A DNA stretch of 64,000 nucleotides from an uncultured Chryseobacterium sp. (GTDB lineage Bacteria; Bacteroidota; Bacteroidia; Flavobacteriales_F; PHOS-HE28), in contig CAYMXP010000005.1 in assembly GCA_964394425.1 (NCBI GenBank), positions 24,034 to 88,033 of the forward strand. Reading direction: 5' to 3'. This document shows, piece by piece, positions 1-18,253 of the stretch (position 1 is the stretch's first letter; the number at the start of each line of letters is the position of its first letter). Below the pieces are notes generated by a model, which saw only the letters and a list, made by a program, of their open reading frames with translations, was not told where the DNA came from and ran no database searches. The position numbers were made by a program, and so were the translations under genes.

Positions 1-182
1 CGGATGGACAGGCCGTAATTCACCGTGAGCGGGAAGTAGGGACGGCCGGCGAGGGTGAAGCCGTCCGGGCCGACCGTCACGAACGCTGACGGACCGGGCC
101 CGTCACACCCCGCGAGCACGGATGCGAGGATCATTGCTCCCAGCCGGCGGATCCCGGCCTGGCGACGGATGGGTACGACCAT
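1..182 (-). CDS. lipoprotein, N-terminal fragment (gene runs off the window start)
   Basis: Reverse-strand translation from the ATG at 182 gives MVVPIRRQAGIRRLGAMILASVLAGCDGPGPSAFVTVGPDGFTLAGRPYFPLTVNYGLSI. It has a basic n-region, a hydrophobic core and an L-A-G-C lipobox. The frame stays open to the window edge, so it is absent from the ORF track. Confidence 0.4.
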   Translation of the reverse strand, partial: MVVPIRRQAGIRRLGAMILASVLAGCDGPGPSAFVTVGPDGFTLAGRPYFPLTVNYGLSI

Positions 183-195
183 GCCACGAACATAG

Positions 196-2085
196 ATGAG
201 GACATCCACCGTCACCGATGCCGGTCCGCTACTTTCGGCGCGAGCCATGACGTCCACCACCTCCTCGTGGCGCGATCGGATCGATCTGATCGCGGTCTGG
301 GTCCTGTTCATCGCCATTCTGGTGAACCGCCTGCTGACCCTCACGGCCAACGAGCTGGGCTGGGATGTGTTCGGCTACTACCTCCCCCTGCCGGCCACCT
401 TCATTCACGGCGATCCGCTGCTCACCGACCCGTCCTGGATCCACGCCATACGCGAGCAGTATCATACCAGCGACACGCTCTATCAGTTGAGCTCCGCGCC
501 CGACGGATCGCCGATGTACTTCTTCCTCCTGGGGATGGCCGTGCTGTACGCGCCGTTCTTTTTCATCGGTCATGGCATCGCATGGTTCTCCGGAGCGCCG
601 ATGGATGGCTTCAGCACGCCTTACCAGGTGACGATCGCCGTGGGCTGCACGCTCTATTCCCTGCTGGGGCTTTTCATTCTGCGGAAGATCCTGCGCCGCT
701 TCTTCAGCATTGGCATCGCGGCCGTGGTCATCCTGGTGATCGGCTTCGGCACCAACTTCTACCATTTCGCCTCGGTGAAGAGCCTTGAGACGGCGAGCTT
801 CCTTTTCTGCGGGATCGCCCTGCTGGTCTGGAACACATTGCGCTGGCACGAGGAGCACCGGCGCCATCATTTGCTCGCCATCGCTGCCTGCGTGGCCATG
901 ATCACGTTGATCAAGCCCAGCGAGATCGTGTGCGGGTCGATCCCGTTGCTATGGGGCGTGAAAGACCGGGCCTCGTTGCGCGAAAAGATCCGGTTGCTGC
1001 GGGCCAGGCTTGCGGACCTGCTGTCTGCCATCGGGTTGGGCTTGCTGATCCTCTCGCCGCAACTGGCCTACTGGATCCTGAAGACCGGCGTGCCGGTGTA
1101 TGACAGTTACAAGAACCCGGGCGTGGGACTGGACTGGTGGTCGCCCCACGTGGGCGACGTGCTGTTCAGCTTCCGCAAGGGCTGGCTGATCTACACGCCG
1201 GTGATGTTCTTCGCGCTGGCGGGCCTCGTCCTGCTTTGGAGGCAACGGCGCGATCTCTTCTGGGCGATCGCCCTCTACGTTCTATCCGCATTCTACATCA
1301 TCGCGAGCTGGACGGAGTGGTGGTATGGCGCCAGCTTCTCGATCCGGCCGATGATCACCACCTATCCGGTGCTCGCCATCGCGCTCGGCTTCGCCCTGGC
1401 GTGGATCGGCGCACGCGCACGCGCCCTTCGAACGATGCTGGCGGCGCTGGTCGTCGTCCTTTCACTGCTCAACCTCTTCCAGACCTGGCAGTTCAACCAT
1501 TGGATCCTGCACGATTACCGCACCACGCGACCGTATTACATGGCCGTGTTCGGCCGCACCAGCGTGCCCTGGCTGGCGGACAGCCTGCTGGCGATCCCGC
1601 GGCGCTTCGATGGCCTGGACACGCTGAAGGACAGCCTGCGCTACACGCGCGTGCCGCTCCTTGCCCGCACGTTCCAGGGCGATACCGCGGCGGCCGTGGG
1701 CATCGTGCCCGATGGATCGGGCGCGCATGGCTATTTCATGGGCGAAGCCAGCGAATACCTGCCCGGGTTCGAAGCGCCGATCGGTTCGCTGACCGACGGC
1801 GATCATCTATGGCTGCGCGCGCGGGCCGAGGTTTTCCTGCCCGACACGCTGGCCGAGCCGCCCTGCCTCGTGGTGAGCATGGAGCGTCGCGAAGGTCCTT
1901 ACGGTTACCGTGCGACGTGCGAGACGAGGAAAGGCCACCGGTCCGGCCAGTTCACCCTCGCGATGGAATACCTGACCCCGTCCTTGCGCTCGCCGCGCGA
2001 CCGGGTGAAGGTTTACCTCTGGCGGCGTGGGATGGGAACGTTCTGGGTCAGATCCATCAAGGTCGAAGGGTTCGTTCAAAAATGA
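196..2085 (+). CDS. polytopic membrane protein, putative GT-C-type glycosyltransferase with C-terminal soluble domain (paralog family i)
   Basis: 629-aa ORF dominated by hydrophobic helices. First-loop motif LGWDVFGYYLPLPATFIHGDP follows TM1. FSFRKGWLIYTPVM is shared with 2159-3439, 9558-11402 and 11414-12739. A ~160-aa soluble C-terminus ends VKVYLWRRGMGTFWVRSIKVEGF. Start is the ATG at 196, with an alternative ATG at 247. The CDS call is firm; the function is inferred. Confidence 0.7.
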   Translation: MRTSTVTDAGPLLSARAMTSTTSSWRDRIDLIAVWVLFIAILVNRLLTLTANELGWDVFGYYLPLPATFIHGDPLLTDPSWIHAIREQYHTSDTLYQLSSAPDGSPMYFFLLGMAVLYAPFFFIGHGIAWFSGAPMDGFSTPYQVTIAVGCTLYSLLGLFILRKILRRFFSIGIAAVVILVIGFGTNFYHFASVKSLETASFLFCGIALLVWNTLRWHEEHRRHHLLAIAACVAMITLIKPSEIVCGSIPLLWGVKDRASLREKIRLLRARLADLLSAIGLGLLILSPQLAYWILKTGVPVYDSYKNPGVGLDWWSPHVGDVLFSFRKGWLIYTPVMFFALAGLVLLWRQRRDLFWAIALYVLSAFYIIASWTEWWYGASFSIRPMITTYPVLAIALGFALAWIGARARALRTMLAALVVVLSLLNLFQTWQFNHWILHDYRTTRPYYMAVFGRTSVPWLADSLLAIPRRFDGLDTLKDSLRYTRVPLLARTFQGDTAAAVGIVPDGSGAHGYFMGEASEYLPGFEAPIGSLTDGDHLWLRARAEVFLPDTLAEPPCLVVSMERREGPYGYRATCETRKGHRSGQFTLAMEYLTPSLRSPRDRVKVYLWRRGMGTFWVRSIKVEGFVQK

Positions 2086-2158
2086 AAGACCCTCAGGTCC
2101 GCGATCACATTTGCTGTTTGAACACGGCGTGTGCTCCCAGCCGGCATCTTCGCGCAGG

Positions 2159-3439
2159 ATGACCGAGAACGCACGCAGGCTGTTGATCGCTCAGGCGATC
2201 TTGTTCGGTTCTGTCTTCATCGTGTCATTCTGGGTCGCGCTGTACATCCAGAGCGAACATCCGGATGGCACACTGCTTTATCGCTCGACCGATAGCTGGG
2301 GCTACTACCAATTCCTCCCCGGGATCATCGGCACGCACGAGCTGGATCACCTGCCCTGGGCGCACGCGATGCCGGATGGTCGCCGGCTCGACCTCTTCAC
2401 CATCGGCGTGGCGATCCTGCAGGCGCCGTTCTTCTTCCTGGGTCATCTGATCGCATGGGCGGGCGGATGGGTGACCAATGGGTATTCAACCCCGTACGTG
2501 ATCTGCAACGTGCTGGCCAATTGCTTCTACGTGGCCCTGGGCTGCGCCCTTGTGTTCCGCACGCTGATCCATTCCTTCTCACGGGTCGCTTCGATCGCCG
2601 CGGCGGTGCTCTGCTACCTCGGGACCAACCTGTACTACTACGCCAGCTTAGAAACGGGCATGTCGCACGGCTATGCCTTCTTCACCTTCGCGCTGCTGCT
2701 CTGGAACACCCGGCTGTGCATCGACCGGCTCAGCGGTCCGCGCATCTTCGGGTTGATCGTCACCTGCGCCCTGGTCGTTCTCGTGCGGCCGTTGAACGGC
2801 ATCGCGCTGTTGATCCCGCTGCTTTGGAAGACAACCGGCATTCGGGAGGTCCTTGTCCGGTTGCGCTGGCCACGCGCGTTCCCCGCATGGGCCATCGCGG
2901 GCGGCCTGGTGGCCGGCGGCCTGCTCTTCCTGCAATCCCTTTACTGGCACCACGTCACCGATCGCTGGCTGGTGTTCACCTACGGGGAGAAGGGTGAAGG
3001 CTTCGAATTCGGCAGGGCCATGCTGGGCGCGGTGCTTTTCAGCCACCAGAACGGCTGGCTGATCTACACGCCCATGATGATCCCCGTGATGGTCGCGTTG
3101 CTGGTGATGGCCTGGCGTCGACTCCCGGGCGCGCGTACGCTGCTGCTGGTCTGGGCGCTGGCCTGGTGGCTGTATGCCAGCTGGTGGTGCTGGTGGCTGG
3201 GCGGCTCTTTCGGTTTCCGGGGCATGGTCGAACACTACGCCTACCTCTCCATCCCCCTGGCCTGGCTGATCGATCGGGCGCGGTCGGTGGAATGGCGCAT
3301 GCGCGCGCTGCGCATCTTCCTGATCCTCGCGGTGTTCTACAACATCCGCATGAGCATGTTCTACCAATGGCCCTGGGAGGGTCCCTCCTGGAGCTGGTCG
3401 ACCCTCGCCCAGACCTGGGGTCGCTTGTTGAGCGAATAG
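2159..3439 (+). CDS. polytopic membrane protein, putative GT-C-type glycosyltransferase (paralog family i, no C-terminal domain)
   Basis: In-frame ATG at 2159 inside track ORF 2027-3439 (MTENARRLLIAQAILFGSVFIV...). The protein is TM-rich, with DSWGYYQFLPG after TM1 and the FSHQNGWLIYTPMM paralog motif. Its stop lies 1 nt from the stop of the convergent gene 3441-5309. Confidence 0.7.
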   Translation: MTENARRLLIAQAILFGSVFIVSFWVALYIQSEHPDGTLLYRSTDSWGYYQFLPGIIGTHELDHLPWAHAMPDGRRLDLFTIGVAILQAPFFFLGHLIAWAGGWVTNGYSTPYVICNVLANCFYVALGCALVFRTLIHSFSRVASIAAAVLCYLGTNLYYYASLETGMSHGYAFFTFALLLWNTRLCIDRLSGPRIFGLIVTCALVVLVRPLNGIALLIPLLWKTTGIREVLVRLRWPRAFPAWAIAGGLVAGGLLFLQSLYWHHVTDRWLVFTYGEKGEGFEFGRAMLGAVLFSHQNGWLIYTPMMIPVMVALLVMAWRRLPGARTLLLVWALAWWLYASWWCWWLGGSFGFRGMVEHYAYLSIPLAWLIDRARSVEWRMRALRIFLILAVFYNIRMSMFYQWPWEGPSWSWSTLAQTWGRLLSE

Positions 3440-3440
3440 T

Positions 3441-5309
3441 TCAGCGCGATCCGATCGACGATCCGGCCCAACGTTTTCGTACCGCGGTGAAGCCATCGAC
3501 CCGGAAGGGCCGCTTGTCCACGTTGTACAGGTAGATCAGCTGCTTCACCTCCGGGTCGAGCGGCACGGCGCGCGCGTGGAACACGAACGTGCCGTTCTTC
3601 AAACGCTTCGCCTCGTAGCGGATATGGGGATCACCCAGCTTCTGCCCGTAGACGATGTTGACCTCCTGGCCTTCCCCGCTCAACTGGATCGAGCCGGTCA
3701 CTTCGAAATCATCGAAGAGCACCTCCGGCCCGGCGGAAGGGATCACGATCTCCAGCGGGAACTCCCCCTCGCCGAAGCACCACTGGCGCGCCATGCCCTG
3801 GCACGCCAGGGTATCGGCCCTTGCCCAGACCTCCGCCGATGGCCCGCGATCCGATAGCAGCGTGTCAACCACCACGGCGATCCTGCTGTCGCGCCGTTCA
3901 AAGAGGAACAGCTCATACCGATGGCCGCCCAGCACCGCATGGCCATCGCGGGGTGCCCAGAAGCCCAGCACGTTGAATTTGGGATCGCCCAGCAGCGCAT
4001 CCAGAGGGATCCCGTTCTCGTTCGGCCCGAACTGCGATTCCCAGAAGATCAGGTCGCCCTCGTTGAACCGGTGGTCGAAGCCATCGGTGCCCCACAGGGT
4101 GATGTAGCGGTCGGGATCGAACGGATCGACCCCGCTTTTCACGCCCATGTAGGGGTGGGTGGAGTGGACCTTGCGGCCCTGGGACGCATACCGATGGACC
4201 ATTTCGCCCGCGGCGTCCAGCACTTCCTGGTCGGCGTTCGGGCGGATGGGAAAAATGCGGTTCAGTTGCAGGTCGGCCCAGGACCAGCAGGCCACGGCGG
4301 CGAAAAGCAGGGCGCCCAGGTCGGCGCGCAGCGTGCGCTCCTTCAACCAGACGGTGGCCGCGCGCGCCAGCGTGAACGCCGTGAAGATCCCCGCCAGCGG
4401 CACCCCGGTGACCACCACGCGCGTGAGCCCTGCGCTGCCTTTGAGGCCCCGCGCCCAGAGGAAGGAATGCAGCCCGAGGATCAGCAGCGCGGATCCCGCG
4501 GCCACGACCAGCAGGAGCAGGTGTACGCGGCGGTGTTCGCGATCGGAGCGCCAGACCAGCGGCCAGAGCAGGAAGGCCGCCGCGAACAGCACCATGAGCG
4601 GCCGGCCGGTGATCGCATGCATGGCGTCCACGAAATGCCACGGATCGCCCGAGCCATACACCGCGCGCATCGGATACGGATCACGGTTCCAATACCAGAG
4701 CGGATCGTCCAGCGCGATCCAGGCGATCAGCGAATAGAGCGCGAGGCCGGTGGCCAGGAAGGGGAGCGCCTTCCACCGTCGCTCAACACAAAGCCACGAC
4801 GCCACGACGGGCACGAAAACGATGAACTCCGGACGCGAAAGCGGCGTGAACGAAGCCACGACCGCCGCGAGCACCCACCGTTCGCGCAGCAACAGCCAGA
4901 GCACCACCACGGTCATCGCGCCGAAGAGGATCTCCGTCATGCCGGCCACCACCTCGTGGCGGTAGAGCGGACCGAGCATCACCAGCAGGGGGAAGGACAA
5001 TTGCGCGTAGCCGCCCGCTCCGCGCAGGGCCAGCACGGCCACCCAGCAGGTGAGCGCGGCCAGCACGGCATTGAACACCGCCATGGCATCCAGGCCGAAC
5101 TGCGCGAAAGGCAGGGCCAGCAGCGTGAAGAGCGGCTTGCCCCAATGATCGAGCAACAGGTGCGGATGGACCTGCGCCCACCGGGCGATCAGGTGGTGCT
5201 GCACGCCATCGCCCATGTCGGCCACGCCGGCGCTGTCGATCGCCACCAGCACGTACCAGACCGCCAGGCCCAGGCCCAGCGCGATCGCGATGCGTTCTCC
5301 GCGGATCAT
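3441..5309 (-). CDS. polytopic membrane protein, putative GT-C-type glycosyltransferase with C-terminal soluble domain (singleton family)
   Basis: 622-aa ORF with an ATG at 5309. The N-terminal ~400 aa are hydrophobic, and the acidic loop motif VADMGDGVQHHLIARW follows TM1. The soluble C-terminal ~200 aa end LIYLYNVDKRPFRVDGFTAV, resembling the C-termini of 196-2085, 7624-9546, 9558-11402 and 13450-15273. Confidence 0.7.
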   Translation of the reverse strand: MIRGERIAIALGLGLAVWYVLVAIDSAGVADMGDGVQHHLIARWAQVHPHLLLDHWGKPLFTLLALPFAQFGLDAMAVFNAVLAALTCWVAVLALRGAGGYAQLSFPLLVMLGPLYRHEVVAGMTEILFGAMTVVVLWLLLRERWVLAAVVASFTPLSRPEFIVFVPVVASWLCVERRWKALPFLATGLALYSLIAWIALDDPLWYWNRDPYPMRAVYGSGDPWHFVDAMHAITGRPLMVLFAAAFLLWPLVWRSDREHRRVHLLLLVVAAGSALLILGLHSFLWARGLKGSAGLTRVVVTGVPLAGIFTAFTLARAATVWLKERTLRADLGALLFAAVACWSWADLQLNRIFPIRPNADQEVLDAAGEMVHRYASQGRKVHSTHPYMGVKSGVDPFDPDRYITLWGTDGFDHRFNEGDLIFWESQFGPNENGIPLDALLGDPKFNVLGFWAPRDGHAVLGGHRYELFLFERRDSRIAVVVDTLLSDRGPSAEVWARADTLACQGMARQWCFGEGEFPLEIVIPSAGPEVLFDDFEVTGSIQLSGEGQEVNIVYGQKLGDPHIRYEAKRLKNGTFVFHARAVPLDPEVKQLIYLYNVDKRPFRVDGFTAVRKRWAGSSIGSR

Positions 5310-5322
5310 CCTCTTCCAAGTT

Positions 5323-5428
5323 CACCACAGAGACACGGAGGCACGGAGAAGAAAATGCATGAATTCAATTGGGTCGACCGGCTTCATCCATGGTCTGCAT
5401 TTCTCTGTGCCTCTGTGTCTCTGTGGTG
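5323..5428. repeat. long imperfect inverted repeat (hairpin) built from tandem octamers, without an ORF in the loop
   Basis: Arm 1 (5323-5359) is CACCACAGAGACACGGAGGCACGGAGAAGAAAATGCA. Arm 2 (5396-5428) is TGCATTTCTCTGTGCCTCTGTGTCTCTGTGGTG, whose reverse complement is CACCACAGAGACACAGAGGCACAGAGAAATGCA. They match over ~31 positions with two G/A differences and one 4-nt bulge. Each arm is 3 tandem 8-mers (CACAGAGA/CACGGAGG/CACGGAGA). The element lies in the 128-nt gap between the GT2 gene and 3441-5309. Confidence 0.8.
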
Positions 5429-5437
5429 GAAAACAGA

Positions 5438-6151
5438 TCACGGGAACAACCCGTAACGCACGATGCACCAGATGGCGCGCAGGCCATCGCGCCAGCCGAT
5501 CTTCTTGCCTTCGGCATAAGTACGGCCATAGTAACTGATGCCCACCTCGTAGATGCGCACCCCCGGCACCCGCGCGAGCTTGGCCGTCACCTCGGGTTCG
5601 AACCCGAAACGCTTCTCGCGCAGGTCGAGGCTTTTGGCGATGTCGGTGCGGATCAGCTTGTAGCAGGTCTCCATGTCCGTCAGGTTCAGGTTGTTGAACG
5701 CGTTGGACAGGCTGGTGAGGAACTTGTTCCCGATGCTGTGCCAGAAGAAGAGGATGCGGTGCGGGTGATGGCCCATGAAGCGCGAGCCGAAGACCACGTC
5801 GGCGAAGCCCTCGCGCACCGGGCGCAACAACAGGTCGTACTCGCGGGGATCGTATTCGAGGTCGGCATCCTGCACGATCAGGTGGTCGCCGGTGGCCTCC
5901 CGGATCCCGCGGTGGATGGCCGCGCCCTTGCCCATGTTGCGCGGTTGTTCGAAAAGCACCACCCCCGCATCGGGATGCTCAGCCATGAAGGCCCTCACCT
6001 TCCCCACCGTGCCGTCGCGCGAGCCGTCGTTCACCACGATGATCTCCTTGCGCATGCCGTGGTCAAGGTCCACCGCACGCACGCGCTCCAGGATGCCCGT
6101 GATGGTGCGCTCCTCGTTATAGGCGGGGATGATGATGGTGAGCTTATCCAT
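5438..6151 (-). CDS. glycosyltransferase family 2, Dpm1/GtrB/ArnC-like polyprenyl-phosphate sugar synthase (short form, no TM tail)
   Basis: 237 aa: [17 protein letters not shown]...[11 protein letters not shown]...GKGAAI...[11 protein letters not shown]. This is the classic GT-A/GT2 signature with a DAD (DXD) motif. The ATG at 6151 overlaps the stop of upstream gene 6144-7541 by 8 nt. Confidence 0.9.
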
Positions 6152-7541
6152 GAGGGCGCATCAGGCGCAGGCTGATCCGTTGTCCGGCCGGCGTGCGCAA
6201 CAGCGCCACGCAGGCGGCCAGCACCACCAGCCACACCACGCGCGATTGGAGCCGGTCGTAGGCGTTGGCCATGCCGGCCGTCACCAGCGCATTGAGAAAG
6301 ACCCAGGCGATCATCGCGCGAAGAAAGCACCGGGCGGGCAACTCATCCGGGCCGCGCGGCCAGGCCAGGAACAGGACCAGCACCGCCAGCAGCAATGCCG
6401 TGAAGTGGATGCGGTTGATCGCGTCGAACCCCCATCCATTGTGCGCCTGCACGGAGGTGATGTACCTGCCCGCCTCCCAGGGGAGGCGTTCCTTGATGTT
6501 GAAGTAGGGCGAACTGTCGAGGTGGAAACTGACGATGCCCGATCCGGTGTTCACCTGGAAGAGCTGGATGGCCGTGCTGATCAGCGCGGACTTCAGATAG
6601 CGGCCCAGGTAGCGGGGCTCGCTCAACAGATCCTTCACCATGGGCGCCAGGGTCGAGTCCGCCTGCTCCATGGAGAGCCCCATGCGGTTCACGATGCTGT
6701 TCGACGGCCAGATCAGATCGCCGGGAAGCAGGGGAAGCTCATCCTTGTATGGGCAGAGCGGATAGTCGCGTTCACCGCAATGCTCCCGCAGAAAGGAGCC
6801 CATGACGTCGTTCTCGCACAGTCGTCCGGCGAAGTAGACATGCGCCGCCGGAGAGAACACCGGCCTCAGTCCGTGGCGGGCATTGTACCACGTGACAAAG
6901 CCGATGCACAGCAGGGTCGTTGCGCAAGCGCCCGCCCATTTCACCCAGAACCCCGGAAGGCACATCCCTCGCGCACCGATCGACCGCGGGATGATCGCGC
7001 ACATCAGCGCCAGCACCGCGATGCCCACATGCGAATAGTGGGACATCAGGAAGAAGAACAGGCAGATCCAAAGGAACCCCTGGCGCACCGGGCCGATCCC
7101 CCTGCCGAAGAGCAGCAGGTACAGGACCATGGCGGTCAGCGGCGTAAGGGCATCGGGCATCAGCTGCGCGGCATACCACGGCATGCTGGTCAGCAGCATC
7201 AGCACCACGACCACGACAAGATGGATCCGCCATATCCCCCTGTCGCCCGGCAGCAGTTGCTTCAATACTTCCAACAACAGCCACCCGGTCATGAAGCCCT
7301 GGAAAAGCACCACCGTCCAGAGGGTGCTCTGCCAGGTGACGGCCCGGATGATGAAGCCATAGCCGATCGGACGGTCGTCCAAGGGCAGCAGGTTGAAGGC
7401 CGAGCGGATGTAAGACCCGGAATCCGAATACACGAAGGGGTACCGATTGATGAAGGCGAGCGCAGCGATCAGGAAGGCCGCCCCCGCGAGATACATCAGC
7501 GTTCTCGCACGTTCGATCCAGAGGTCACGAAGGCCCGTCAT
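6144..7541 (-). CDS. polytopic membrane protein, putative GT-C-type glycosyltransferase (singleton family)
   Basis: 465-aa ORF that is hydrophobic throughout. TM1 ([14 protein letters not shown]) is followed by the acidic loop [16 protein letters not shown]. Its stop overlaps the GT2 start codon region. Confidence 0.65.
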
Positions 7542-7623
7542 CGCAATGGTCGAAGGTCGAACTTCCGCGCGTCATCGTCGTTCATCCCCGGATCCGGCAT
7601 GATGTGGAACGGAGCGGCGCCCG

Positions 7624-9546
7624 CTAGTGAGCGATCCAAAGTTCCATGTCATCCAGGAATATGGCCGGGTGCGATCCCCAAGGCGGCACCATGAACCGGA
7701 CCTCATCTCCCGGAAGCAGGGGCTCGTCCACGCGCATCGTCACGCTCACGGGGTTCCATCCCGCGAAGTCGGCGATCTGCGGCACCGAACCCGCATCGCG
7801 TTGCGCGATGATCACCCCCCCGCGCACCACCTGGAGCACGAACGACACCCAGTTCCGGTCATCGGGTTGATGCACCATGGCCGAGCCGGTGACTACGAGC
7901 GGACCGGAAAGCCCACCCTCGGGAACGATCCAGACCAGCGGATCGATGGCTCGCGTGAGCGTGTCGAAGCGCACGCTGTATCGCCCGCTCACATGGTACG
8001 TCGTGCTGCGGCCCGCCAGGCCGGGCTCTTCCATGTCACGGCCGGCGTGATGGAGCACGCGCGAGCCGAGCCCCACGGAACGGACATCGCGATACAGCGA
8101 TGTACCCGTCGCCGCGGACCGGTAGACCAGGTCCCAATGGACCGTATCCACCTGGCCGTATTCGTTCCATTCCACGATGTAATGGTCCGAAGGCAGGAAC
8201 GGCGCAGGAGGCACGTGCTGCTTCGCATCGATCCAATGGATGCCGCGCGCGTGGAAATAGTAGAACAGCGCCCCCCAGCTCTCGTCCCCCGCGGACAGGG
8301 TCATCACGGGTCGCTGGGGGGTCGGCCGCCCACGGTCCCGTTCCAGGAGATCGAGCATGTGCCGCGCTTCCCCGGATGGCTTCCATTCGATCGAATGCGT
8401 GAGGTTCGCGCTGCGCGCCGTGATCGCCATGAGCAGCACGGCCGGCAACCACGCGGCCGCGACCACGATCCATCGCCTGTTCCGCCAGACCTCCAGCGTG
8501 CCTGCGAAGGCGAAGGCGGCCAGCGGCACCAGAAAGAGCGCGGTGCGCGCGCGCGGCCAGGGGACGTCGAACAGGATGTGCTGCGCTCCGAGCCCGACAA
8601 GCGCCATCGCCAGCACGGCCGCTCCGAAAAAGGCCTCGAAGCCGCTCCCGTTCACACGCAAGGCCCGGAACAGGGAGACCGCGATCCACAGGATCAGCAC
8701 CACGGCGGAGGTGATCATGATCGCCCGCGGATCCCAGGGATACGCCTTGAGATAAAGCACCTTCTCACCCAGCGTGCGCAGCGTGCAGTGCAGGAGGTCG
8801 TCGCAGCCGAAATTCAATGATCCACCGCGATGGAGCCCAAGGGCATTGGGCAGCACGAGCAGCAGCCCGAACAGGGGGATGCCGATCAAGAGGGCGATGG
8901 ATCCGCCGCGCGGAAGGACCGACCGCCGCCGGTACGACCAGGCGAACAGCACCAGCGCGACCGCGATCATGCAGGTGATCATGACCACGTGCGCCATCGC
9001 CGCCAGCGCGGTGAAGGCCAGCGCGCCGATCAATGCGGCACGTCCGCCGCCGCGCGCGAACCGCCATCCCTGCCACAAGCCCATCATCAGGGTGCCGTTC
9101 GCCAGCCCGTACCCGCGCGCCAGGGAGAAGAAGTCCAGCAGGTACGGGTGCGCGTTCAGCAGCACGAAGGCCGGCACCGCGGCGCGGGACGGGAGCGTCA
9201 GCGCCATGCGCGCCGTCGCATACAGGTAGAGCACATGCGCCATCAGGTTCGGCAGTCGCAGGACGAGCTCATCCGCGCCGAACAACCGATGGCAGATCCA
9301 CATCAGCCATACGTTGAGCAGGTGATGGTTGCCGCCCATCTGGTCATGCTCGTCCTGGAAGAACCTGTTCTTGAGCACGTGGTGCATGAACGTGTAGGAT
9401 TCATCCCACGAGAAGGAGACGGTGATCGCGCGCGCGGTCGTCAACGCGAGGAAGCCCGCCGCCAGGGCGATGATCGCGACGTGCGACGGGTCGATGGTCC
9501 GGGTGTTCCTCCGATCGGTATTCGCCGGTCCGTCGCTGGTCTCCAC
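7624..9546 (-). CDS. ArnT/PMT-like (GT39/GT83-type) membrane glycosyltransferase with C-terminal soluble domain (paralog family ii)
   Basis: TM1 (VAIIALAAGFLALTTA) is followed by SWDESYTFMHHV...GGNHHLLNVWLMWICHRLFGADELVLRLPN and FFSLARGYGL, all shared with 13450-15273. The soluble C-terminus ends VRFMVPPWGSHPAIFLDDMELWIAH. The track ORF extends to 9702 but would overlap the upstream gene by 145 nt. I chose the in-frame GTG at 9546 (VETSDG...); this start is uncertain. Confidence 0.65.
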   Translation of the reverse strand: METSDGPANTDRRNTRTIDPSHVAIIALAAGFLALTTARAITVSFSWDESYTFMHHVLKNRFFQDEHDQMGGNHHLLNVWLMWICHRLFGADELVLRLPNLMAHVLYLYATARMALTLPSRAAVPAFVLLNAHPYLLDFFSLARGYGLANGTLMMGLWQGWRFARGGGRAALIGALAFTALAAMAHVVMITCMIAVALVLFAWSYRRRSVLPRGGSIALLIGIPLFGLLLVLPNALGLHRGGSLNFGCDDLLHCTLRTLGEKVLYLKAYPWDPRAIMITSAVVLILWIAVSLFRALRVNGSGFEAFFGAAVLAMALVGLGAQHILFDVPWPRARTALFLVPLAAFAFAGTLEVWRNRRWIVVAAAWLPAVLLMAITARSANLTHSIEWKPSGEARHMLDLLERDRGRPTPQRPVMTLSAGDESWGALFYYFHARGIHWIDAKQHVPPAPFLPSDHYIVEWNEYGQVDTVHWDLVYRSAATGTSLYRDVRSVGLGSRVLHHAGRDMEEPGLAGRSTTYHVSGRYSVRFDTLTRAIDPLVWIVPEGGLSGPLVVTGSAMVHQPDDRNWVSFVLQVVRGGVIIAQRDAGSVPQIADFAGWNPVSVTMRVDEPLLPGDEVRFMVPPWGSHPAIFLDDMELWIAH

Positions 9547-9557
9547 GAAGCAGTGGG

Positions 9558-11402
9558 TCAGGGCAGATCCCTCGCGAAGCTCGTCACCTGGACGCTGTCC
9601 ACCAGCACGCGCGCGCCACCCATGTGCCACGCGTAGATCTTGAAGCGGTCGCTCCTGCTGCGCGGTTCGGGCGTGAGGTAGTCGAAGGTCACCCGCTTCC
9701 ACTGGCCCGCCACCAGATCCTCGTTCTTCAGCTCGAAGGCCTGATAGGCATAGCTGCCTCCATGATCGAAATGGGCCACGAACACCGTGCTCACCTGCGA
9801 TCGATCCTCATCGCAGAACACATCCGCTTCGATCCTCAGCCAGGCGTGGTCATCGGGAACGGCATCGGCGAAGGACGCCTCGATCGCCGGGGTGTAGGGA
9901 TGTTCGCCATCCAGCGGCCAGGCCCTGCGACCATCGGGCGCATCGACCACCGCGTCTCCTTCCTCCAGCACCCATTGTGTGTGGCGGGCATGGCCGGTGA
10001 GGTCCGCATGGACCACCTGGTCCGTCGGCCGCTTGAAGAGCAGGAGCTTTTCTTTCGCCGGGTCGGGGCGCAGGTCGAAGAAGGCCGCCGCGTAGTAGGC
10101 CGGCGTAACGCGCACCGGATCGAAGACCTTGAGGCGGTATTGGATCGACTGGTGCAGGTTCAACACGGTGAACAGGCCGATCAGCGTCACCGCCCATCGC
10201 CGGCGCATGCGCGGCCATGTGGAGATCCATGCGATGAGCGCCGCCAATGCGATGGCCATGACCGGATACGCCTGGACCATGGCGCGTTGCCCGAACCCAC
10301 CGGGGTAGTACCACACGGTCCATGACGATACCACCCATAGATCGACGAGGAAGAACACGAGCAATGCGATCGCGATGCCGCGGGATCTCTTGAGCAAGGG
10401 GACAAAGCCCGCCACTGCGAGCAGCATCATTGGCGTATAGAGGAACCAGCCTTTGCGAAAGCTGAACAGGAAATTCAACGTATGCGGTGCGAGCAGGTCG
10501 AGCCCCTCGGCCGGGTTCTGGTAGCTGTCGTAGATCCACGAGCCGGCATGCACCTTCCAGTACAGCGGCAGTGGGAGGAACACGATCGCCCCCGCCAGCA
10601 TCGCGAGGGCCACCTGGCCCCGGTGCGACTTCCACAGCCGCCGCAGTTTCGCCCCGGACCCGACGGCGCCTTGCAGCGGCCAGAGGATCGGGATCAGCAC
10701 GGCCAGCGCATCGGTCGGGCGCACCAGCGCGATCAAGCCCAGCACCGCGCCCAATGCGATCGATCGGCCGGTGCCCGGCGCATCATGCCAGCGCATGGTG
10801 GTCCGGAGCAGCAGCGCGAAGAGCATGAACGAATAGCCGTGCGTGAGCAGGCAGGAAACCTCGAACTGCACCAGCAGGTTGGTGCCCAGCAGGAGGATCA
10901 CAAGCGTGAAGAATGCCACGCGCGGTCCGAACAATTCCTCCAGCACGCGCAGCAGCACCCACAGCCCGATGGCGAGGTAGAGGAGATAGAGGATGGAGGC
11001 GCCGTACTGGTACGGTCTCGACAGGCCGTCCGCGGGAAAGCCCAACGGTTCCGCCACCAGGTCGGCGATCAGGAAGGCCGGCAGGTCCAGCAGCGCCACC
11101 CCGGGCGCATAGCGGATCACCATGTCGCCCGTGGGCGCCTTGTGGGCCTGGTAGAAGGTGGATGAGGGGTCGTAGGTGGCGAACATCTCCTGCACCACCG
11201 TGGGATCGCGCATGCCCAGGTCGTGGTGGATGATGGCCAGCGGCAGATACAGGTGATATCCGAAGGCGTCCCAGGTGATCGGGTTGTTCCAGGCGCGCAT
11301 GGGCACCCGGGCGGCCATGTGGAGGATGAAGAGCGCGATGACCGCGCGACCGAACCAGGGGAACGGCCGTTTATCACCCCTTGCTATCTGTTCGGCGGGC
11401 AT
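9558..11402 (-). CDS. polytopic membrane protein, putative GT-C-type glycosyltransferase with C-terminal soluble domain (paralog family i)
   Basis: Closest paralog of 196-2085. Shared motifs: WDAFGYHLYLPLAIIHHD, SRPYQ, YDSYQNPAEGLD, FSFRKGWFLYTPMM, DHAWLRIEADVF and YLTPEPRSRSDRFKIYAWHMGGARVLVDSVQVTSF. Start is the ATG at 11402 (MPAEQ...); the track start at 11417 is a TTG. Confidence 0.7.
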   Translation of the reverse strand: MPAEQIARGDKRPFPWFGRAVIALFILHMAARVPMRAWNNPITWDAFGYHLYLPLAIIHHDLGMRDPTVVQEMFATYDPSSTFYQAHKAPTGDMVIRYAPGVALLDLPAFLIADLVAEPLGFPADGLSRPYQYGASILYLLYLAIGLWVLLRVLEELFGPRVAFFTLVILLLGTNLLVQFEVSCLLTHGYSFMLFALLLRTTMRWHDAPGTGRSIALGAVLGLIALVRPTDALAVLIPILWPLQGAVGSGAKLRRLWKSHRGQVALAMLAGAIVFLPLPLYWKVHAGSWIYDSYQNPAEGLDLLAPHTLNFLFSFRKGWFLYTPMMLLAVAGFVPLLKRSRGIAIALLVFFLVDLWVVSSWTVWYYPGGFGQRAMVQAYPVMAIALAALIAWISTWPRMRRRWAVTLIGLFTVLNLHQSIQYRLKVFDPVRVTPAYYAAAFFDLRPDPAKEKLLLFKRPTDQVVHADLTGHARHTQWVLEEGDAVVDAPDGRRAWPLDGEHPYTPAIEASFADAVPDDHAWLRIEADVFCDEDRSQVSTVFVAHFDHGGSYAYQAFELKNEDLVAGQWKRVTFDYLTPEPRSRSDRFKIYAWHMGGARVLVDSVQVTSFARDLP

Positions 11403-11413
11403 TCGTGAAATGA

Positions 11414-12739
11414 TCAACAGCCAACATCACCAAAGAAAGCCCGCAACAGATTGCGACCATACGGGCACCAATCCCACGGATCCTCAGTGAAATAACCGAT
11501 GTCGCTCTGGAGCATCGCTCTGTAATTGATGAAACAAATGATGATCAGCAATGGAACGGCACCATGAAAGAGGCCCGGCGACCGTTCATGCGTGAACGCG
11601 AGCAACGCCCACAAGGACAGGGCAAGGAACGGCACGTACTGTACCATGGGTCGCATTCCGTAGCCCAGTCCGAAATGCCAGGCATGCCATGAAGCACAGG
11701 CATAGAGCGCGAGTAGAATGCAGACAGCGATCAAAATGGCCATCCCGCGATCACGGAGCCACAACACCACGAGCGCGAATGGCAGCAGAGCGAACACCGG
11801 CGCATTGGGCAGGAGCCCGTTCATCGGTGCGGCGATCACTTTGCCCAGATGCGGAGAGGCCCAGTTGGTGAATCCTTCGCCGGTGTACGACCAGACGATC
11901 CAGTGATCATGCACATGATGCCAGTAAAGCAGTTGCGGTATGGCGATAACGATGCACGCGGCGACCTGCTTCGCCATCAGTCCGGCACGCAAGCCATTCC
12001 TCCCGTGGAAAACGCTCACAAGACCATATAGCGTGCAGACCGCCAGCAGGTCAATGGGGCGCATAAGAACGATAAGCGCATTGGAGACCACGAATACCAA
12101 TTGCCAGCGGCGTGTCCAAGTACCGCGCATTATCGCATACAATGACAAGGACACGAGGAAGAAGGAATACACGTGTGAGTAGCCTGGCATCCGAAAGGCG
12201 TAGAAGAACAAATTGGTCCCAAACGATGCACAAGCGAACACCAGCAAGGCCAGCAATGGAGCGGCTGGACGCCAGCGGAAGAAACACAGCATGAGCAACA
12301 CGGATCCCGCCAACCAATAGAAGATCCCAGCGAGGTTGATCGCGTTGTGATGGGTGCGCGTCAGCCCGTTGGTCCGCCCAATTCCCACGATGGTATCTGC
12401 TACGAGATAGAACGGCAGCTGGAGCAACGCCGTGCCGCAGGTGTATTTCGTCACGATGCGGTCGCGGTCGCGATCAAGCCCAAAGCCGAGCCCGGCGATC
12501 CTCAGGTCCGCGCTGTCGATCGTATTTGCCTTGAACCCGTAATGGAACAGACCGGGCAGGTAGATGTAATAGCCGGCCGCGTCTGCCCGAATGTGGCTGT
12601 GGTAGTCGTCCAAGGGCACCTTGTAAGCTCGTTCGATGGCGGACCAGCTGAAGAACGCGAAGAGGGCCATCGCGCTCAGTGCGATCGCGATGGCCCTCCT
12701 GCGTGGGATACAGCGCGCGTATCCTTCCTGAACGGGCAT
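11414..12739 (-). CDS. polytopic membrane protein, putative GT-C-type glycosyltransferase (divergent member of family i, low-GC)
   Basis: 441-aa hydrophobic ORF with an ATG at 12739. ADAAGYYIYLPGLF follows TM1. It has no C-terminal soluble domain. GC content is visibly lower than in the neighbouring genes. Confidence 0.65.
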   Translation of the reverse strand: MPVQEGYARCIPRRRAIAIALSAMALFAFFSWSAIERAYKVPLDDYHSHIRADAAGYYIYLPGLFHYGFKANTIDSADLRIAGLGFGLDRDRDRIVTKYTCGTALLQLPFYLVADTIVGIGRTNGLTRTHHNAINLAGIFYWLAGSVLLMLCFFRWRPAAPLLALLVFACASFGTNLFFYAFRMPGYSHVYSFFLVSLSLYAIMRGTWTRRWQLVFVVSNALIVLMRPIDLLAVCTLYGLVSVFHGRNGLRAGLMAKQVAACIVIAIPQLLYWHHVHDHWIVWSYTGEGFTNWASPHLGKVIAAPMNGLLPNAPVFALLPFALVVLWLRDRGMAILIAVCILLALYACASWHAWHFGLGYGMRPMVQYVPFLALSLWALLAFTHERSPGLFHGAVPLLIIICFINYRAMLQSDIGYFTEDPWDWCPYGRNLLRAFFGDVGC

Positions 12740-12747
12740 TGGGATCC

Positions 12748-13404
12748 TTATAGGCTCATTTCCGGCACCTCCCCCTTCACCACCAGTCTTCCTTCCGTCT
12801 TCGCCTTGATCTCATCGACCGTCACGCCCGGCGCCCGTTCGATCAGTTGAAAACCATCCGGCGTGATGTCGAACACCCCAAGGTCCGTCACCACCTTCTT
12901 CACGCAGCGCACGCCGGTGAGCGGGAGCGTGCATTGCTTCAGGAGCTTGCTTTCGCCCGCCTTGTTGGTGTGCATCATCACCACGATGATGTTCTCGGCG
13001 CTGGCCACCAGGTCCATGGCGCCGCCCATGCCCTTCACCATCCTGCCGGGGATCTTCCAGTTGGCGATGTCGCCGTTGTCGGCCACTTCCATGGCGCCCA
13101 GCACGGTGAGCTGCACCTTCTGGCTGCGGATCATGGCGAAGCTGGTGCTGCTGTCGAAGATGCTGGAACCGGGAAGCAGCGTCACCGTCTGTTTTCCCGC
13201 GTTGATCAGGTCCGCATCCTCTTCACCCTCGTAGGGGAAGGGCCCCATGCCCAGGATCCCGTTCTCGCTCTGCAACGTGACGTTGATGCCTCCGGGGATG
13301 TAATTGGCCACCAGCGTGGGGATGCCGATGCCCAGGTTGACATAGTAGCCGTCCTTGAGCTCGCGCGCGATGCGGCGGGCCATCTGGTCTTTGTTCAGGG
13401 GCAT
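12748..13404 (-). CDS. scoB: 3-oxoacid CoA-transferase subunit B
   Basis: Reads MPLNKDQMARRIARELKDGYYVNLGIGIPTLVANYIP...SENGILGMGP...GAMDLV, typical of the CoA-transferase B subunit. Start is the ATG at 13404, inside track ORF 12748-13449. Confidence 0.9.
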   Translation of the reverse strand: MPLNKDQMARRIARELKDGYYVNLGIGIPTLVANYIPGGINVTLQSENGILGMGPFPYEGEEDADLINAGKQTVTLLPGSSIFDSSTSFAMIRSQKVQLTVLGAMEVADNGDIANWKIPGRMVKGMGGAMDLVASAENIIVVMMHTNKAGESKLLKQCTLPLTGVRCVKKVVTDLGVFDITPDGFQLIERAPGVTVDEIKAKTEGRLVVKGEVPEMSL

Positions 13405-13449
13405 GGTCTGAAGTGTGGTCGGCAAGGTATCGCCATGTGGCGGATCCAC

Positions 13450-15273
13450 TCACCGGCCGGCGGATCGATACAGCGTCACATGCGCCTCATGCACCTCGTA
13501 TTCCTCCTGCCGAACGTTCCATAAGTACACCACGCGACGGTGGGCCCGTGCGTTGGCCGCCGGGATCCGCCGCAGCACGTGCAGCGTATCGCGTTGCCAT
13601 CTGCGTCGCACATCGTCCAGGTCATTGGTCTCGAACTGCAGGTGGTTGTCCAGGCTGTCGCTGGCATCCACCACCAGCACCAGCCGCGACGGATCGCCGG
13701 ACGAGCTGATCACCGCTTCGACCTCGACGAACACGTCGCCCTCATGCGTGGGCGGCTCAAAGCTTTCCCAAAGGGTCATGTACAGACCGGTGGCCGGACC
13801 CCGGGACAGCGTGGTATCGGAGGTGCGTTCCAGTCGGAGCGGTTCGCGACGTTCCAGAAGCAGCAGGCGCCCGTGCGGCGCGGCGTAGAGCGTGCGGAAG
13901 CCTTCCGGCCGGTCGAAGAAAGTCGGGTCGATGAGCATCAGGTCGCCGTTCGGTTGCGGGAAGCCGATGTGGTCCAACCCGTTCAGGTCGCGGCCGCGGA
14001 TGTAGTTGCCGTAACTCCAGGGTCCCGCGTTCTGGTGGTACCCGCCGATCACCAGCGGGCGCGGCGCATGGCGTTGCTTTTCGGCCACGATCCCGAAGAC
14101 CTCATCGGGGATGGATTGCTCCGCCCAATACGTGGTGTGGTCCAGGTTGGCGGTCGCCGCCGTGCGCAACGGGAACCAGAAGAAGAGCAGGCCGACCCAG
14201 CGCAGCGACCTGCGCTGCTCCGCGGCACGGTCGATCCATGCAGCACAGGCGATCAGGAACAGCGGCACCAGATGCATGGCCGTGCGATCGACCGGATACA
14301 GCATGCCGAAGCCCTCCCCCAGCACCAGCCGGCCGCACGCTTCGCCGAGCAGCAGGAGGGAACAGACGGCCAGAAGCGTGTCCGATCCATTGAACCTGCG
14401 TTGGGCGAGCACGTGGAGCGCCGGCCAGAAAAGCGCCACGGCGACGACGCCGATGCCCATCACCAGCCATCGTGACCAGAGGCCGGCCACGTTCCAGAGG
14501 AGCGAGACCGCGGTGCCGTCCACGAGACCCTGCGTACTTCCATAATAGAGCGCCCCGCGTTCGGCCAGCTCCACGCCGCACCAGGCCAGGAACGCCGTTG
14601 GCAGCACGCCCACCAGGATCCACACGATCCAGCTCCGCGCGCCGCGCGCACGCATGGGAATGAACAGCGCCGTGAGGCCCACCATGAGCAGCGACTGCAA
14701 TAGCAGGGTGAGCGACGCGGTGGTGGCGAGCGCGGTGGCGGCGAGCGCCAGGACCATCTGCTTGCGCCCGCCCTCGCGCAGGAAGCGCACCAGGTGATGC
14801 AGCGCCATGACCTGGAAGGCGATCGAGAGCCCGTACCCGCGGAACAACGAGAAGAACTCGATCACGAAAGGCGTGAAGAGCAGCGCCGGCAACAGTCCGC
14901 CGCGCACGAGCCGGTCGGTGATGGCCGAGGCGAGTCGAACAGCATACCACGCGTACAGCGCGAAGGCCAGCACGTTGAAGAGCCGCATGGAGAATTCCCC
15001 GGGGCCGAACAGCGCTTGGCTGATCTGCGCCAGCGCGGTGGCCAGCAGGTGGTTGCCGGCGTCCCAGTGCGCCTGGAAGGGAAGGAACTCCCCCGTGAGC
15101 ACATAGGTCTGGAAGGTGCGGGCTTCATCGTGGATGAAGGGGACGAGCGCCGCTCGAAGAACCACATACACCAGTCCGATCAGGGCGCACGCAGCAATGG
15201 CCCGACGGTCGCCAATGGGGAAATGTGAAAATGTGAAAATGTGCGCGCGTGCCGGGGAGGTCGGCTCCTTCAT
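13450..15273 (-). CDS. ArnT/PMT-like (GT39/GT83-type) membrane glycosyltransferase with C-terminal soluble domain (paralog family ii)
   Basis: Motifs FIHDEARTFQTYV...AGNHLLATALAQISQALFGPGEFSMRLFN and FFSLFRGYGL are shared with 7624-9546. The C-terminus ends VVYLWNVRQEEYEVHEAHVTLY. The ATG at 15273 forms an ATGA overlap with the stop of the four-helix-bundle gene. Codons 10-18 (HIFTFSHFP) are encoded by the left AT-rich repeat. Confidence 0.65.
   Translation of the reverse strand: MKEPTSPARAHIFTFSHFPIGDRRAIAACALIGLVYVVLRAALVPFIHDEARTFQTYVLTGEFLPFQAHWDAGNHLLATALAQISQALFGPGEFSMRLFNVLAFALYAWYAVRLASAITDRLVRGGLLPALLFTPFVIEFFSLFRGYGLSIAFQVMALHHLVRFLREGGRKQMVLALAATALATTASLTLLLQSLLMVGLTALFIPMRARGARSWIVWILVGVLPTAFLAWCGVELAERGALYYGSTQGLVDGTAVSLLWNVAGLWSRWLVMGIGVVAVALFWPALHVLAQRRFNGSDTLLAVCSLLLLGEACGRLVLGEGFGMLYPVDRTAMHLVPLFLIACAAWIDRAAEQRRSLRWVGLLFFWFPLRTAATANLDHTTYWAEQSIPDEVFGIVAEKQRHAPRPLVIGGYHQNAGPWSYGNYIRGRDLNGLDHIGFPQPNGDLMLIDPTFFDRPEGFRTLYAAPHGRLLLLERREPLRLERTSDTTLSRGPATGLYMTLWESFEPPTHEGDVFVEVEAVISSSGDPSRLVLVVDASDSLDNHLQFETNDLDDVRRRWQRDTLHVLRRIPAANARAHRRVVYLWNVRQEEYEVHEAHVTLYRSAGR
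15221..15243. repeat. left arm of the octamer-periodic inverted repeat flanking the four-helix-bundle gene
   Basis: AAATGTGA AAATGTGA AAATGTG: three tandem 8-mers, AT-rich within a ~68% GC context. It is complementary to 15708-15738. Confidence 0.75.
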
Positions 15274-15683
15274 GTGCGGTTCGCGCGAGCGGTTATCAGG
15301 ATCTTGGAGAGGATGTTCCGGATGTCCTGAAGCTCTTCCAACAGGCCTTCCTCGTATGGTAGTTCCTCTGAGTATTTGCACAGCTTCAACCAGTAGTGCG
15401 TTCCACTGGCCTCCTTGGCCCCGATCTTCATCTTGTGGATGAAGTCGTCCCGGCTCTCTGGTTCCTGAGCTTCGTGGATCTGAGCGCCGATCGACGTTCC
15501 GCTCCTGAACAATTGACGTGAAGCATCCCACCATCCGCCATCGCGCAGCTTCTTGCAGAACCCGATGATCCGTAAAGCGAATTCGAAGTTCCGATCAACG
15601 ATCACGTTGCCGGTAACCCGCTCATCTCCGTATGCCGCCCTTCCTTCCTGCATCATCCAAGGCGTGTACTGGTCCATGTTCAT
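15270..15683 (-). CDS. four-helix-bundle protein (23S rRNA intervening-sequence protein / Avd-like family)
   Basis: Reads ...FEFALRIIGFCKKLRDGGWWDASRQLFRSGTSIGAQIHEAQEPESRDDFIHKMKIGAKEASGTHYWLKLC..., the typical pattern of this family. The gene has low GC. I prefer the ATG at 15683 (MNMDQ...); the track start at 15710 is a GTG inside the right repeat. Confidence 0.8.
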   Translation of the reverse strand: MNMDQYTPWMMQEGRAAYGDERVTGNVIVDRNFEFALRIIGFCKKLRDGGWWDASRQLFRSGTSIGAQIHEAQEPESRDDFIHKMKIGAKEASGTHYWLKLCKYSEELPYEEGLLEELQDIRNILSKILITARANRT

Positions 15684-15707: not shown

Positions 15708-15738
15708 CACATTTTCTCATTTCCTCATTTTCACATTC
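15708..15738. repeat. right arm of the octamer-periodic inverted repeat flanking the four-helix-bundle gene
   Basis: CACATTTT CTCATTTC CTCATTTT CACATTC. Its reverse complement, GAATGTGA AAATGAGG AAATGAGA AAATGTG, matches the left arm at both ends with one extra octamer. It overlaps the scoA stop codon (15731-15733). Confidence 0.75.

Positions 15739-16808: not shown

Positions 16809-18253
<1,445 letters not shown>

Follow-up and report, generated by a model that had tools for sequence, protein, structure and literature searches.

A 64,000-nucleotide stretch of the genome of an uncultured Chryseobacterium sp. (contig CAYMXP010000005.1, positions 24,034 to 88,033; hereafter the window) carries at its left end a packed array of eight genes for polytopic membrane proteins around a single gene for a short glycosyltransferase of family GT2. 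The most likely role of this array is the building or decorating of a cell-envelope glycan outside the cytoplasm. In the reading preferred here, to which a rough probability of 0.55 is given, it is a chromosomal envelope-glycan locus in which one GT2 provides the donor for a battery of periplasmic transferases of the GT-C superfamily. The polytopic proteins belong to four families, and in each of them an acidic residue soon after the first transmembrane (TM) helix is the best-conserved feature. The window has a G+C content of ∼64%, and its nearest relatives are uncultured metagenome-assembled genomes (MAGs) of the Flavobacteriales.

All eight open reading frames of the original prediction are present on the expected strands, and encode proteins of 426-640 amino acids (aa). 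The window lies within a 239-kb contig of JGI metagenome sample 3300009873, and the gene calls of JGI and Logan on this contig agree with them, except for the starts of o196 (612 aa) and o11414 (418 aa). The polytopic proteins, designated by their lowest coordinate, and the GT2 are as follows.

196..2085 (+): o196, family i, GT-C-like, with a C-terminal beta-sandwich; 629 aa (612 aa with the JGI start at 247)
2159..3439 (+): o2159, family i, GT-C-like, short form without the C-terminal domain; 426 aa, D-S-W-G-Y-Y after TM helix 1
3441..5309 (-): o3441, divergent GT-C-like protein with a C-terminal beta-sandwich; 622 aa, final gene of the minus-strand run
5438..6151 (-): GT2, soluble, of the Dpm1/AglJ/ArnC/GtrB type; 237 aa, proposed polyprenyl-phosphate sugar synthase
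6144..7541 (-): o6144, polytopic, predicted GT-C-like fold; 465 aa, ∼10 TM helices, conserved partner of the GT2
7624..9546 (-): o7624, family ii, PMT_2-like GT-C, with a C-terminal beta-sandwich; 640 aa, W-D-E motif
9558..11402 (-): o9558, family i, GT-C, with a beta-sandwich at residues 476-609; 614 aa, ∼11 TM helices
11414..12739 (-): o11414, family i, GT-C-like, short form without the C-terminal domain; 441 aa, D-A-A-G-Y-Y motif
13450..15273 (-): o13450, family ii, PMT_2-like GT-C, with a C-terminal domain; 607 aa, H-D-E motif, located between scoA and scoB

Putative polytopic transferases and the proposed donor synthase

The grouping of the polytopic proteins, first proposed from shared motifs, was reproduced by BLASTP. 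Family i pairs give E values of 2e-18 to 2e-91 (o196 with o9558, 2e-91; o2159 with o196 and o9558, 6e-43 and 5e-38; o11414 with the other members, 1.5e-25, 3.5e-20 and 2e-18), and the family ii pair o7624 and o13450 gives 5.5e-28. Profile comparison by hhalign joins family ii to family i (99.2%, E 3e-19). The same comparison ties the o3441 family to family i (96.5%, E 8e-10, 417 columns) and to family ii (93%, across the C-terminal domain); o3441 is therefore not the singleton it was taken for, being distant kin of both families. The o6144 family displays no profile similarity to the others.

The nearest curated family is PMT_2 (PF13231; ArnT, Pmt and Rgt-like enzymes, CAZy GT39/GT83), which has a gathering threshold of 26.1 bits. 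In the Pfam scan, o7624 (1.4e-4, 22.5 bits) and o13450 (2.5e-3, 18.5 bits) match it under the cut-off, and o196 matches DUF6541, also under the cut-off (1.5e-5). At E ≤ 0.01, PMT_2 is matched by 12 of 39 family i homologues (best E 2.5e-8) and by 31 of the 50 homologues sampled from family ii, which has more than 3,000 representatives (best E 6e-10). The eight proteins are thus not curated members of PMT_2, being under its threshold, and the matches of their homologues mark them as divergent relatives. UniRef gives one family i homologue the name 'RgtA/B/C/D-like', and NCBI assigns another homologue to GT39 and one homologue of o3441 to GT87.

Structure models were obtained with AlphaFold2 (AF2) for o9558 and o6144, the other six proteins being tied to o9558 by BLASTP or hhalign. 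The o9558 model (pLDDT 89.8), searched against the PDB with Foldseek, matches STT3, AglB, ALG12, ArnT, EmbA/B/C, PglB, ALG9 and AftA at E values of 4e-5 to 9e-3. Its 14 top matches (4e-5 to 7e-4) are all GT-C enzymes, led by STT3A at 4e-5, and ArnT (5f15) is aligned over 460 columns with a root-mean-square deviation (rmsd) of 6.6 Å. The view that seven of the proteins are divergent PMT_2-like GT-C enzymes has good support. The GT-C character predicted for all eight is accordingly borne out for these seven by PMT_2 profile links, and for o9558 also by its model; for o6144 it is the predicted fold that speaks for it.

The acidic motifs described after the first TM helix are present in all eight proteins. 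Alignments with homologues revealed that D45 in family i, the pair D48-E49 in family ii and D34 in the o3441 family are invariant, and that D40 of the o6144 family is at least 90% conserved. The GT-C superfamily is defined by an acidic loop-1 motif (DxD, DD, DE or ExD) soon after TM helix 1, in the first extracytoplasmic loop (PMC6801728), and the position of the acidic residue in the four families agrees with it. In addition, arginines are conserved in the C-terminal TM cluster, in loops predicted to be periplasmic: family i has R228 (followed by P229) and R373, and the o6144 family has R430 and R434. GT-C enzymes also carry conserved arginines in periplasmic loops of this cluster (PMC6801728).

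The topology was predicted by the positive-inside rule on AF2 helices. Members of the GT-C superfamily have 8-13 TM helices, and their N-terminus is cytoplasmic. A crude hydropathy scan gave 6-11 TM segments, an undercount, as compared to the ∼11 helices of the o9558 model and ∼10 of the o6144 model. All eight N-termini have 2-4 K/R before TM helix 1 against 0-2 after it. Loop charge counts of o9558 place the N-terminus inside and the C-terminus outside, so that D45 and the C-terminal domain would lie outside the cytoplasm, and those of o6144 place both termini inside and a conserved Cys pair in a periplasmic domain. The acidic motif is thus predicted to face the periplasm, as proposed earlier.

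The GT2 matches PF00535 at an E value of 1.9e-30. Its top four NCBIfam matches (AglJ, PgfS, ArnC and PpgS) are all polyprenyl-phosphate glycosyltransferases, and its best PDB match is the dolichol-phosphate mannose synthase (DPMS) of P. furiosus (5mlz, 2e-15), which is aligned over the entire catalytic domain (residues 3-218) and whose DAD motif coincides with the DAD at residues 95-97 of the GT2; ArnC and GtrB come next. These matches support the assignment of the enzyme to the polyprenyl-phosphate sugar synthase type. The scores (AglJ, 95.9 bits against a cut-off of 325; PpgS, 58.8 against 370, with 5e-16 over residues 6-193) are far under the equivalog cut-offs, and hence no sugar specificity can be assigned. 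No TM segment is predicted in its 237 aa (maximum 19-residue hydropathy 0.66), which is compatible with the soluble DPM1/PpgS subtype only; it is this subtype that the enzyme resembles. Its members, human DPM1 (acting with DPM2/3) and mycobacterial PpgS (Rv3631), are short proteins (∼240-260 aa) that have a DXD motif in a GT-A domain and no TM helices, and depend on a membrane partner. The GT2 is similar to them as a short TM-less enzyme, and differs in that its partner would be a 465-aa polytopic GT-C-like protein rather than a small anchor. One such GT2 may feed all eight transferases.

Candidate acceptor and neighbouring genes

A C-terminal domain of ∼130 aa is common to five of the eight polytopic proteins (o196, o9558, o7624, o13450 and o3441). 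A hidden Markov model (HMM) of the domain detects it in o196 (3e-43 and 7.5e-8) and o13450 (5e-15). The family ii profile, in the C-terminal region of o7624, matches the family 22 carbohydrate-binding module (CBM22) of xylanase Xyn10C (4xup) in the PDB with an E value of 4.3e-5, and the family i profile matches the same CBM22 at 8e-3. Foldseek with the C-terminal domain of o9558 retrieved CBM4, CBM16 and CBM22 (TM-score ∼0.5 on the CBM side). GT-C enzymes of the Emb, AftD and GT136 types bind their acceptor glycan through CBMs (PMC11127046). The other genes of this part of the window are given below.

1..248 (-): GH5-like lipoprotein gene (clan GH-A), of which the 5' end lies in the window and the rest beyond its left edge; full length 513 aa, L001 15904-17445
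12748..13449 (-): scoB, 3-oxoacid CoA-transferase subunit B; TIGR02428 6e-99 (above cut-off), PF01144 9e-47
15270..15683 (-): gene of the 23S_rRNA_IVP family, between scoA and o13450; 137 aa, PF05635 4e-14
15731..16453 (-): scoA, 3-oxoacid CoA-transferase subunit A, first gene of the tightly spaced minus-strand run; PF01144 2.7e-77

The locus extends beyond the left edge of the window with the GH5 gene and a ninth polytopic protein. The GH5 protein matches PF00150 above the cut-off (E 1.3e-8, 35.1 bits against 23.5), and its motifs N221-E222-P223, with the acid/base Glu, and G309-E310-T311, with the nucleophile Glu, as well as the lipobox Cys, are invariant in 12 orthologues. It lies in the cluster of 12 related loci. 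By analogy with the CBM-bearing enzymes, the CBM-like domain together with this conserved neighbouring GH5 favours a glycan acceptor. Since five proteins carry the CBM-like sandwich, the target is most likely a polysaccharide or lipoglycan and not lipid A or protein. The target had been left open between protein, lipid A/lipopolysaccharide (LPS) and a surface polymer; it appears to be less open than that. A weak CarboxypepD_reg-like region is also seen at the C-terminus of the GH5 protein. The ninth polytopic protein, p669 (669 aa, L001 17590-19599 (-), ∼1.4-3.4 kb to the left of the window), has a G-D-L-G-D stretch after TM helix 1 and a C-terminal Fascin/FRG1-like (beta-trefoil) region, and is conserved beside GH5 in relatives. 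It matches neither our GT-C HMMs nor the PDB.

These observations also bear on a possible but doubtful alternative, in which the array is a toolbox of independent decorating enzymes and no pathway. Each enzyme would have an acceptor of its own, such as lipid A or LPS core (the case of ArnT and Rgt), O-antigen side chains (GtrC) or secreted proteins (Pmt), they would use the same or different lipid-linked sugars, and tandem duplication would account for their clustering. PMT_2, the curated family nearest to these proteins, holds ArnT, Rgt and Pmt-type enzymes, two homologues bear the Rgt-like and GT39 labels, the D-E pair of family ii is typical of protein O-mannosyltransferases, and both copy number and family content differ between relatives. 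The bactoprenyl-phosphate galacturonic acid (GalA) transferase RgtE, which is listed together with the separate lipid A GalA transferases RgtD and RgtF (PMC7663294), is a precedent for such an arrangement. However, the CBM-like sandwich of the five proteins belongs to the type of GT-C enzyme that acts on polysaccharides and not to the soluble domains of ArnT/PMT, a GH5 lipoprotein with intact catalytic motifs is conserved in the locus, and no lipid A or LPS-core genes are found nearby in the window.

Conservation of the locus and its GT2/o6144 core

Neighbouring genes of the minus-strand run, which begins with scoA and ends with o3441, lie -8 to 128 nucleotides (nt) apart, and this spacing suggests one transcript. 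A sigma-70 promoter and terminator scan of positions 1-17000 gave counts that did not differ from those of shuffled sequences, the promoter model being wrong for Bacteroidota; operon status is therefore inferred from gene spacing. The scoB gene, located between o11414 and o13450 (12748-13449), is probably co-transcribed with the array. Contrary to the earlier claim, the GT2 is not the only soluble enzyme of the span. One or two GT-C genes separate scoA from scoB in 13 related loci (L007, L008, L012, L015-L017, L020, L021, L023, L026, L027, L031 and L062), and the two subunit genes are adjacent in two relatives (L024 and L044); nothing points to a functional connection of ketone-body CoA transfer with glycosylation. 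The 23S_rRNA_IVP gene, which overlaps the start of o13450 by 4 nt, occurs in this genome alone (0 of 80 related loci) and is probably outside the system.

The same arrangement is found in ∼20 species-level Flavobacteriales genomes, in agreement with the expectation that the array would be conserved in related Bacteroidota. The gene order is scoA, one or two family ii GT-C genes, scoB, (a family i gene), an o6144-type gene, GT2, (an o3441-type gene), one to three family i genes, GH5, the 669-aa polytopic protein and, further on, an exonuclease gene, the genes in brackets being optional. This recurrence indicates that the array is not a product of chance. The median identities to the window proteins over 19 loci are 80% for GT2, 84% for scoA and 86% for scoB, as compared to 30-41% for the GT-C-like proteins, 47% for GH5 and 45% for p669. 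The number of transferases and their family content vary between relatives. The loci of relatives hold at least four further polytopic families (one DUF6311, two that score above the PMT_2 cut-off and one with a weak resemblance to GT87), which makes the locus a hotspot for the turnover of GT-C-like genes. The extra types comprise DUF6311 proteins of 770-855 aa, proteins of 530-770 aa that pass PMT_2 and others without a Pfam match (L004 4811-7153 (-), L016, L017, L019, L023 and others). GT2 and o6144 thus make up the conserved core, with a fast-diversifying periphery of PMT_2-like paralogues, and such a periphery suggests surface-glycan variation.

The same data allow a narrower and rather improbable interpretation, namely that only GT2 and o6144 constitute a donor-transferase module, and that the seven PMT_2-like proteins use donors made elsewhere and are neighbours by ancestry. 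The tightest link in the locus is indeed between these two genes, the ATG of GT2 overlapping the stop codon of o6144 by 8 nt (ATGGATAA). o6144 stands beside a GT2 in the Flavobacteriales loci, and the two are neighbours even in one locus of Hymenobacter, one of an unclassified member of the Bacteroidota and 5 of Alphaproteobacteria. The PMT_2-like genes, in turn, are gained and lost between relatives, and two of these (L016 and L020) have a second GT2 in the locus. On the other hand, the window has one GT2 for eight transferases, the spacing of their genes points to a common transcript, and a strongly conserved GT2 among fast-evolving transferases fits a shared donor.

Neither o6144 nor any of its 85 homologues has a Pfam or NCBIfam match. 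Its model is nevertheless of high confidence (pLDDT 95.5, pTM 0.94), and the top 13 Foldseek matches are all GT-C enzymes (STT3, ArnT and AglB; E 2e-3 to 2e-2, TM-score 0.32-0.45, probability 0.99-1.0). PglB, Emb, Pmt, AftB and ALG9 follow at lower ranks, and nearly all transporter matches have a probability <0.2. The most conserved residues of the family (D40, Y44, R57, W122, Q126, D130, H168, R430 and R434) all lie in predicted periplasmic loops, and a helical domain of 150 aa with two conserved Cys is predicted in the periplasm. A GT-C-like fold of o6144 has moderate support on the basis of this model; sequence backing for the label was sought by hhalign and not obtained. Distant homologues of o6144 are solitary in Fluviicola and Salibacteraceae.

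That o6144 is no glycosyltransferase but a membrane partner of the GT2, as anchor, activator or a flippase filling the vacant flippase role, is unlikely: the GT2 has no TM segment and is translationally coupled to o6144, which lacks sequence similarity to any GT-C family and has structural matches of E 2e-3 or weaker at modest TM-scores, and DPM3 for human DPM1 and the small membrane protein assisting mycobacterial PpgS are precedents, but all 13 of the top structural matches are GT-C enzymes, the conserved residues form a periplasmic pattern like that of GT-C enzymes, and the Cys-paired domain would be superfluous in an anchor.

In Alphaproteobacteria, the o6144 family occurs as tandem pairs or triplets (L065, L074, L075, L080, L082 and L086), with a GT2 just upstream in 5 loci. 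In an Acetobacteraceae MAG (L080 7129-13308), a GT2 and two o6144-like genes are followed by genes for a DedA/VTT-domain protein and an NAD-dependent epimerase. As DedA proteins recycle polyprenyl phosphate, the DedA/VTT gene agrees with a cycle of lipid-linked sugars.

The rest of the window is of housekeeping nature (ATP synthase, kinases, pyruvate kinase, PBP1 and RNases), and no tRNA or Rfam features were found in the window. Two further observations were made in the window. The gene at 43173-44846 (+), unrelated to the array, encodes a protein with matches to each of the three GH3-family domains (PF03321, PF23571 and PF23572), a family known from the acyl-acid amido synthetases of plants. 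Between 60000 and 64000 the G+C content falls from ∼65% to 58-60%, in a region that includes a 532-aa MORN-repeat protein (60746-62344, -).

Proposed mechanism and relation to known systems

In the envelope-glycan reading, the best-supported model, the GT2 (5438-6151) would attach a single common sugar, taken from a nucleotide sugar, to polyprenyl phosphate at the cytoplasmic face of the inner membrane. A flippase encoded outside the locus would then move the lipid-linked sugar across this membrane, and the GT-C transferases (four of family i, two of family ii, o3441 and o6144) would take up the donor in the periplasm. Each of them may employ the conserved Asp, or Asp-Glu, of its first periplasmic loop, probably with its own linkage or acceptor-site specificity. 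The CBM-like beta-sandwich of five transferases is proposed to hold the glycan acceptor, and the GH5 lipoprotein probably acts on this polymer too, by trimming or processing it.

The absence of a GtrA-like flippase gene, noted in the original prediction, is supported: non-coding gaps of at most 128 nt leave no room for such a gene in the array, and none is present among the Pfam-scanned genes of the window, a few small open reading frames lying outside that scan. A Wzx-like Polysacc_synt_3 gene of the MOP type at 26423-27898 (+), 11 kb away, was considered as flippase partner and rejected, since it is not in the flanks of any related locus. It is the only MOP-type gene found in the window.

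Several results weigh against the envelope-glycan reading. None of the eight polytopic proteins reaches a curated threshold in the Pfam and NCBIfam scans, and six have no PMT_2 match at all; profile HMMs of the four family alignments do not match PDB sequences in the TM domains. The Foldseek TM-scores of o9558 and o6144 are 0.3-0.45 with a large global rmsd, and comparison of the o6144 family with the other three by hhalign gave 3%, 1.5% and 0.3%, i.e. no similarity. The GT2 falls under every NCBIfam equivalog cut-off and is devoid of the TM helices of GtrB, ArnC and archaeal DPMS. The CBM resemblance is weak, and as to the specificity of GH5, the single sequence has no PDB match and its profile matches mannanases and endoglucanases only weakly. 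The locus contains no flippase, priming enzyme, polymer exporter or nucleotide-sugar gene, and the Wzx-like gene is not conserved with the cluster. Moreover, all the genomes are MAGs.

The logic of such a system is known from Gtr/Arn, Ppm1/DPA and Rgt. In GtrA/GtrB/GtrC of Shigella and Salmonella phages, ArnC/ArnEF/ArnT, CsbB/GtcA/YfhO and PPPRS/MATE/GT136, a GT2-type synthase is likewise encoded beside a GT-C enzyme that acts outside the cytoplasm, and the GT-C enzyme of the GT136 system also has a C-terminal CBM which binds the acceptor glycan (PMC11127046). These three-component systems have one GT-C enzyme per GT2, whereas at least eight GT-C genes of at least three unrelated-looking families are present here, with a TM-less GT2, without a GtrA/SMR/MATE flippase gene in the locus and outside any O-antigen or phage cluster.

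A single donor feeding many GT-C enzymes is familiar from mycobacteria, in which Ppm1 (for PimE, MptA/B/C and Pmt) and decaprenylphosphoryl arabinose (DPA; for EmbA/B/C and AftA-D) play this part. There, one lipid-linked monosaccharide is the common donor of many GT-C enzymes, and every enzyme forms its own linkage in a polymer of the periplasm (PMC3485146). CBMs are present on Emb and AftD, and EmbA/B/C, AftA and AftB are among the structural matches obtained in this study. The present array differs in belonging to a Gram-negative member of the Bacteroidota, in forming one packed locus instead of scattered genes, in its much smaller proteins of other families and in the GH5 lipoprotein of the locus.

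The rhizobial Rgt system is also alike, with RgtE as a single bactoprenyl-phosphate sugar synthase that serves several PMT_2/ArnT-like transferases (PMC7663294), the galacturonosyltransferases RgtA/B/C/D/F. In contrast to the array, Rgt decorates lipid A/LPS core, has no CBM-like domains and is not encoded in one array, and the present proteins have no match above Pfam thresholds.

Dolichyl phosphate mannose (Dol-P-Man) is the donor for many enzymes of the endoplasmic reticulum. As RgtE, Ppm1, DPA and Dol-P-Man each feed several or many enzymes, the claim of a fan-out far beyond the described 1:1 modules was overstated; what is unusual here is the physical clustering and not the fan-out. The new features are the packed multi-family array, the lack of a flippase gene in the locus, the CBM-like fusions, the conserved GH5 and the occurrence in Bacteroidota. 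A literature search retrieved no paper describing such arrays in Flavobacteriales or the related DUF families.

A more ambitious extension can be put forward only tentatively. The locus might be a self-contained periplasmic assembly line that makes a hitherto undescribed envelope polysaccharide or lipoglycan wholly from one polyprenyl-phosphate monosaccharide without Leloir (nucleotide-sugar) transferases for chain building, in which an enzyme of the o6144 type, a GT-C family not recognised before, forms the core, CBM-bearing paralogues set the linkages, GH5 controls the length and turnover of paralogues yields glycan diversity. It would then be, equally tentatively, a functional analogue of mycobacterial mannan and arabinan synthesis in a Gram-negative member of the Bacteroidota.

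The array is a good lead for glycobiology and no conceptual surprise. Periplasmic glycosylation from polyprenyl-phosphate sugars is known mainly as single modules (Gtr, Arn) or as the scattered lipoglycan machinery of actinobacteria, and an array without a dedicated flippase gene prompts one to ask by what route its lipid-linked donor crosses the membrane. It contains several uncharacterised GT-C families, including one without a Pfam or NCBIfam match in any member found, which could be candidates for new CAZy families. It points to an envelope polymer in Flavobacteriales, a group in which several MAG names suggest samples from wastewater treatment, and would offer a tractable system for studying how GT-C enzymes gain new specificities.

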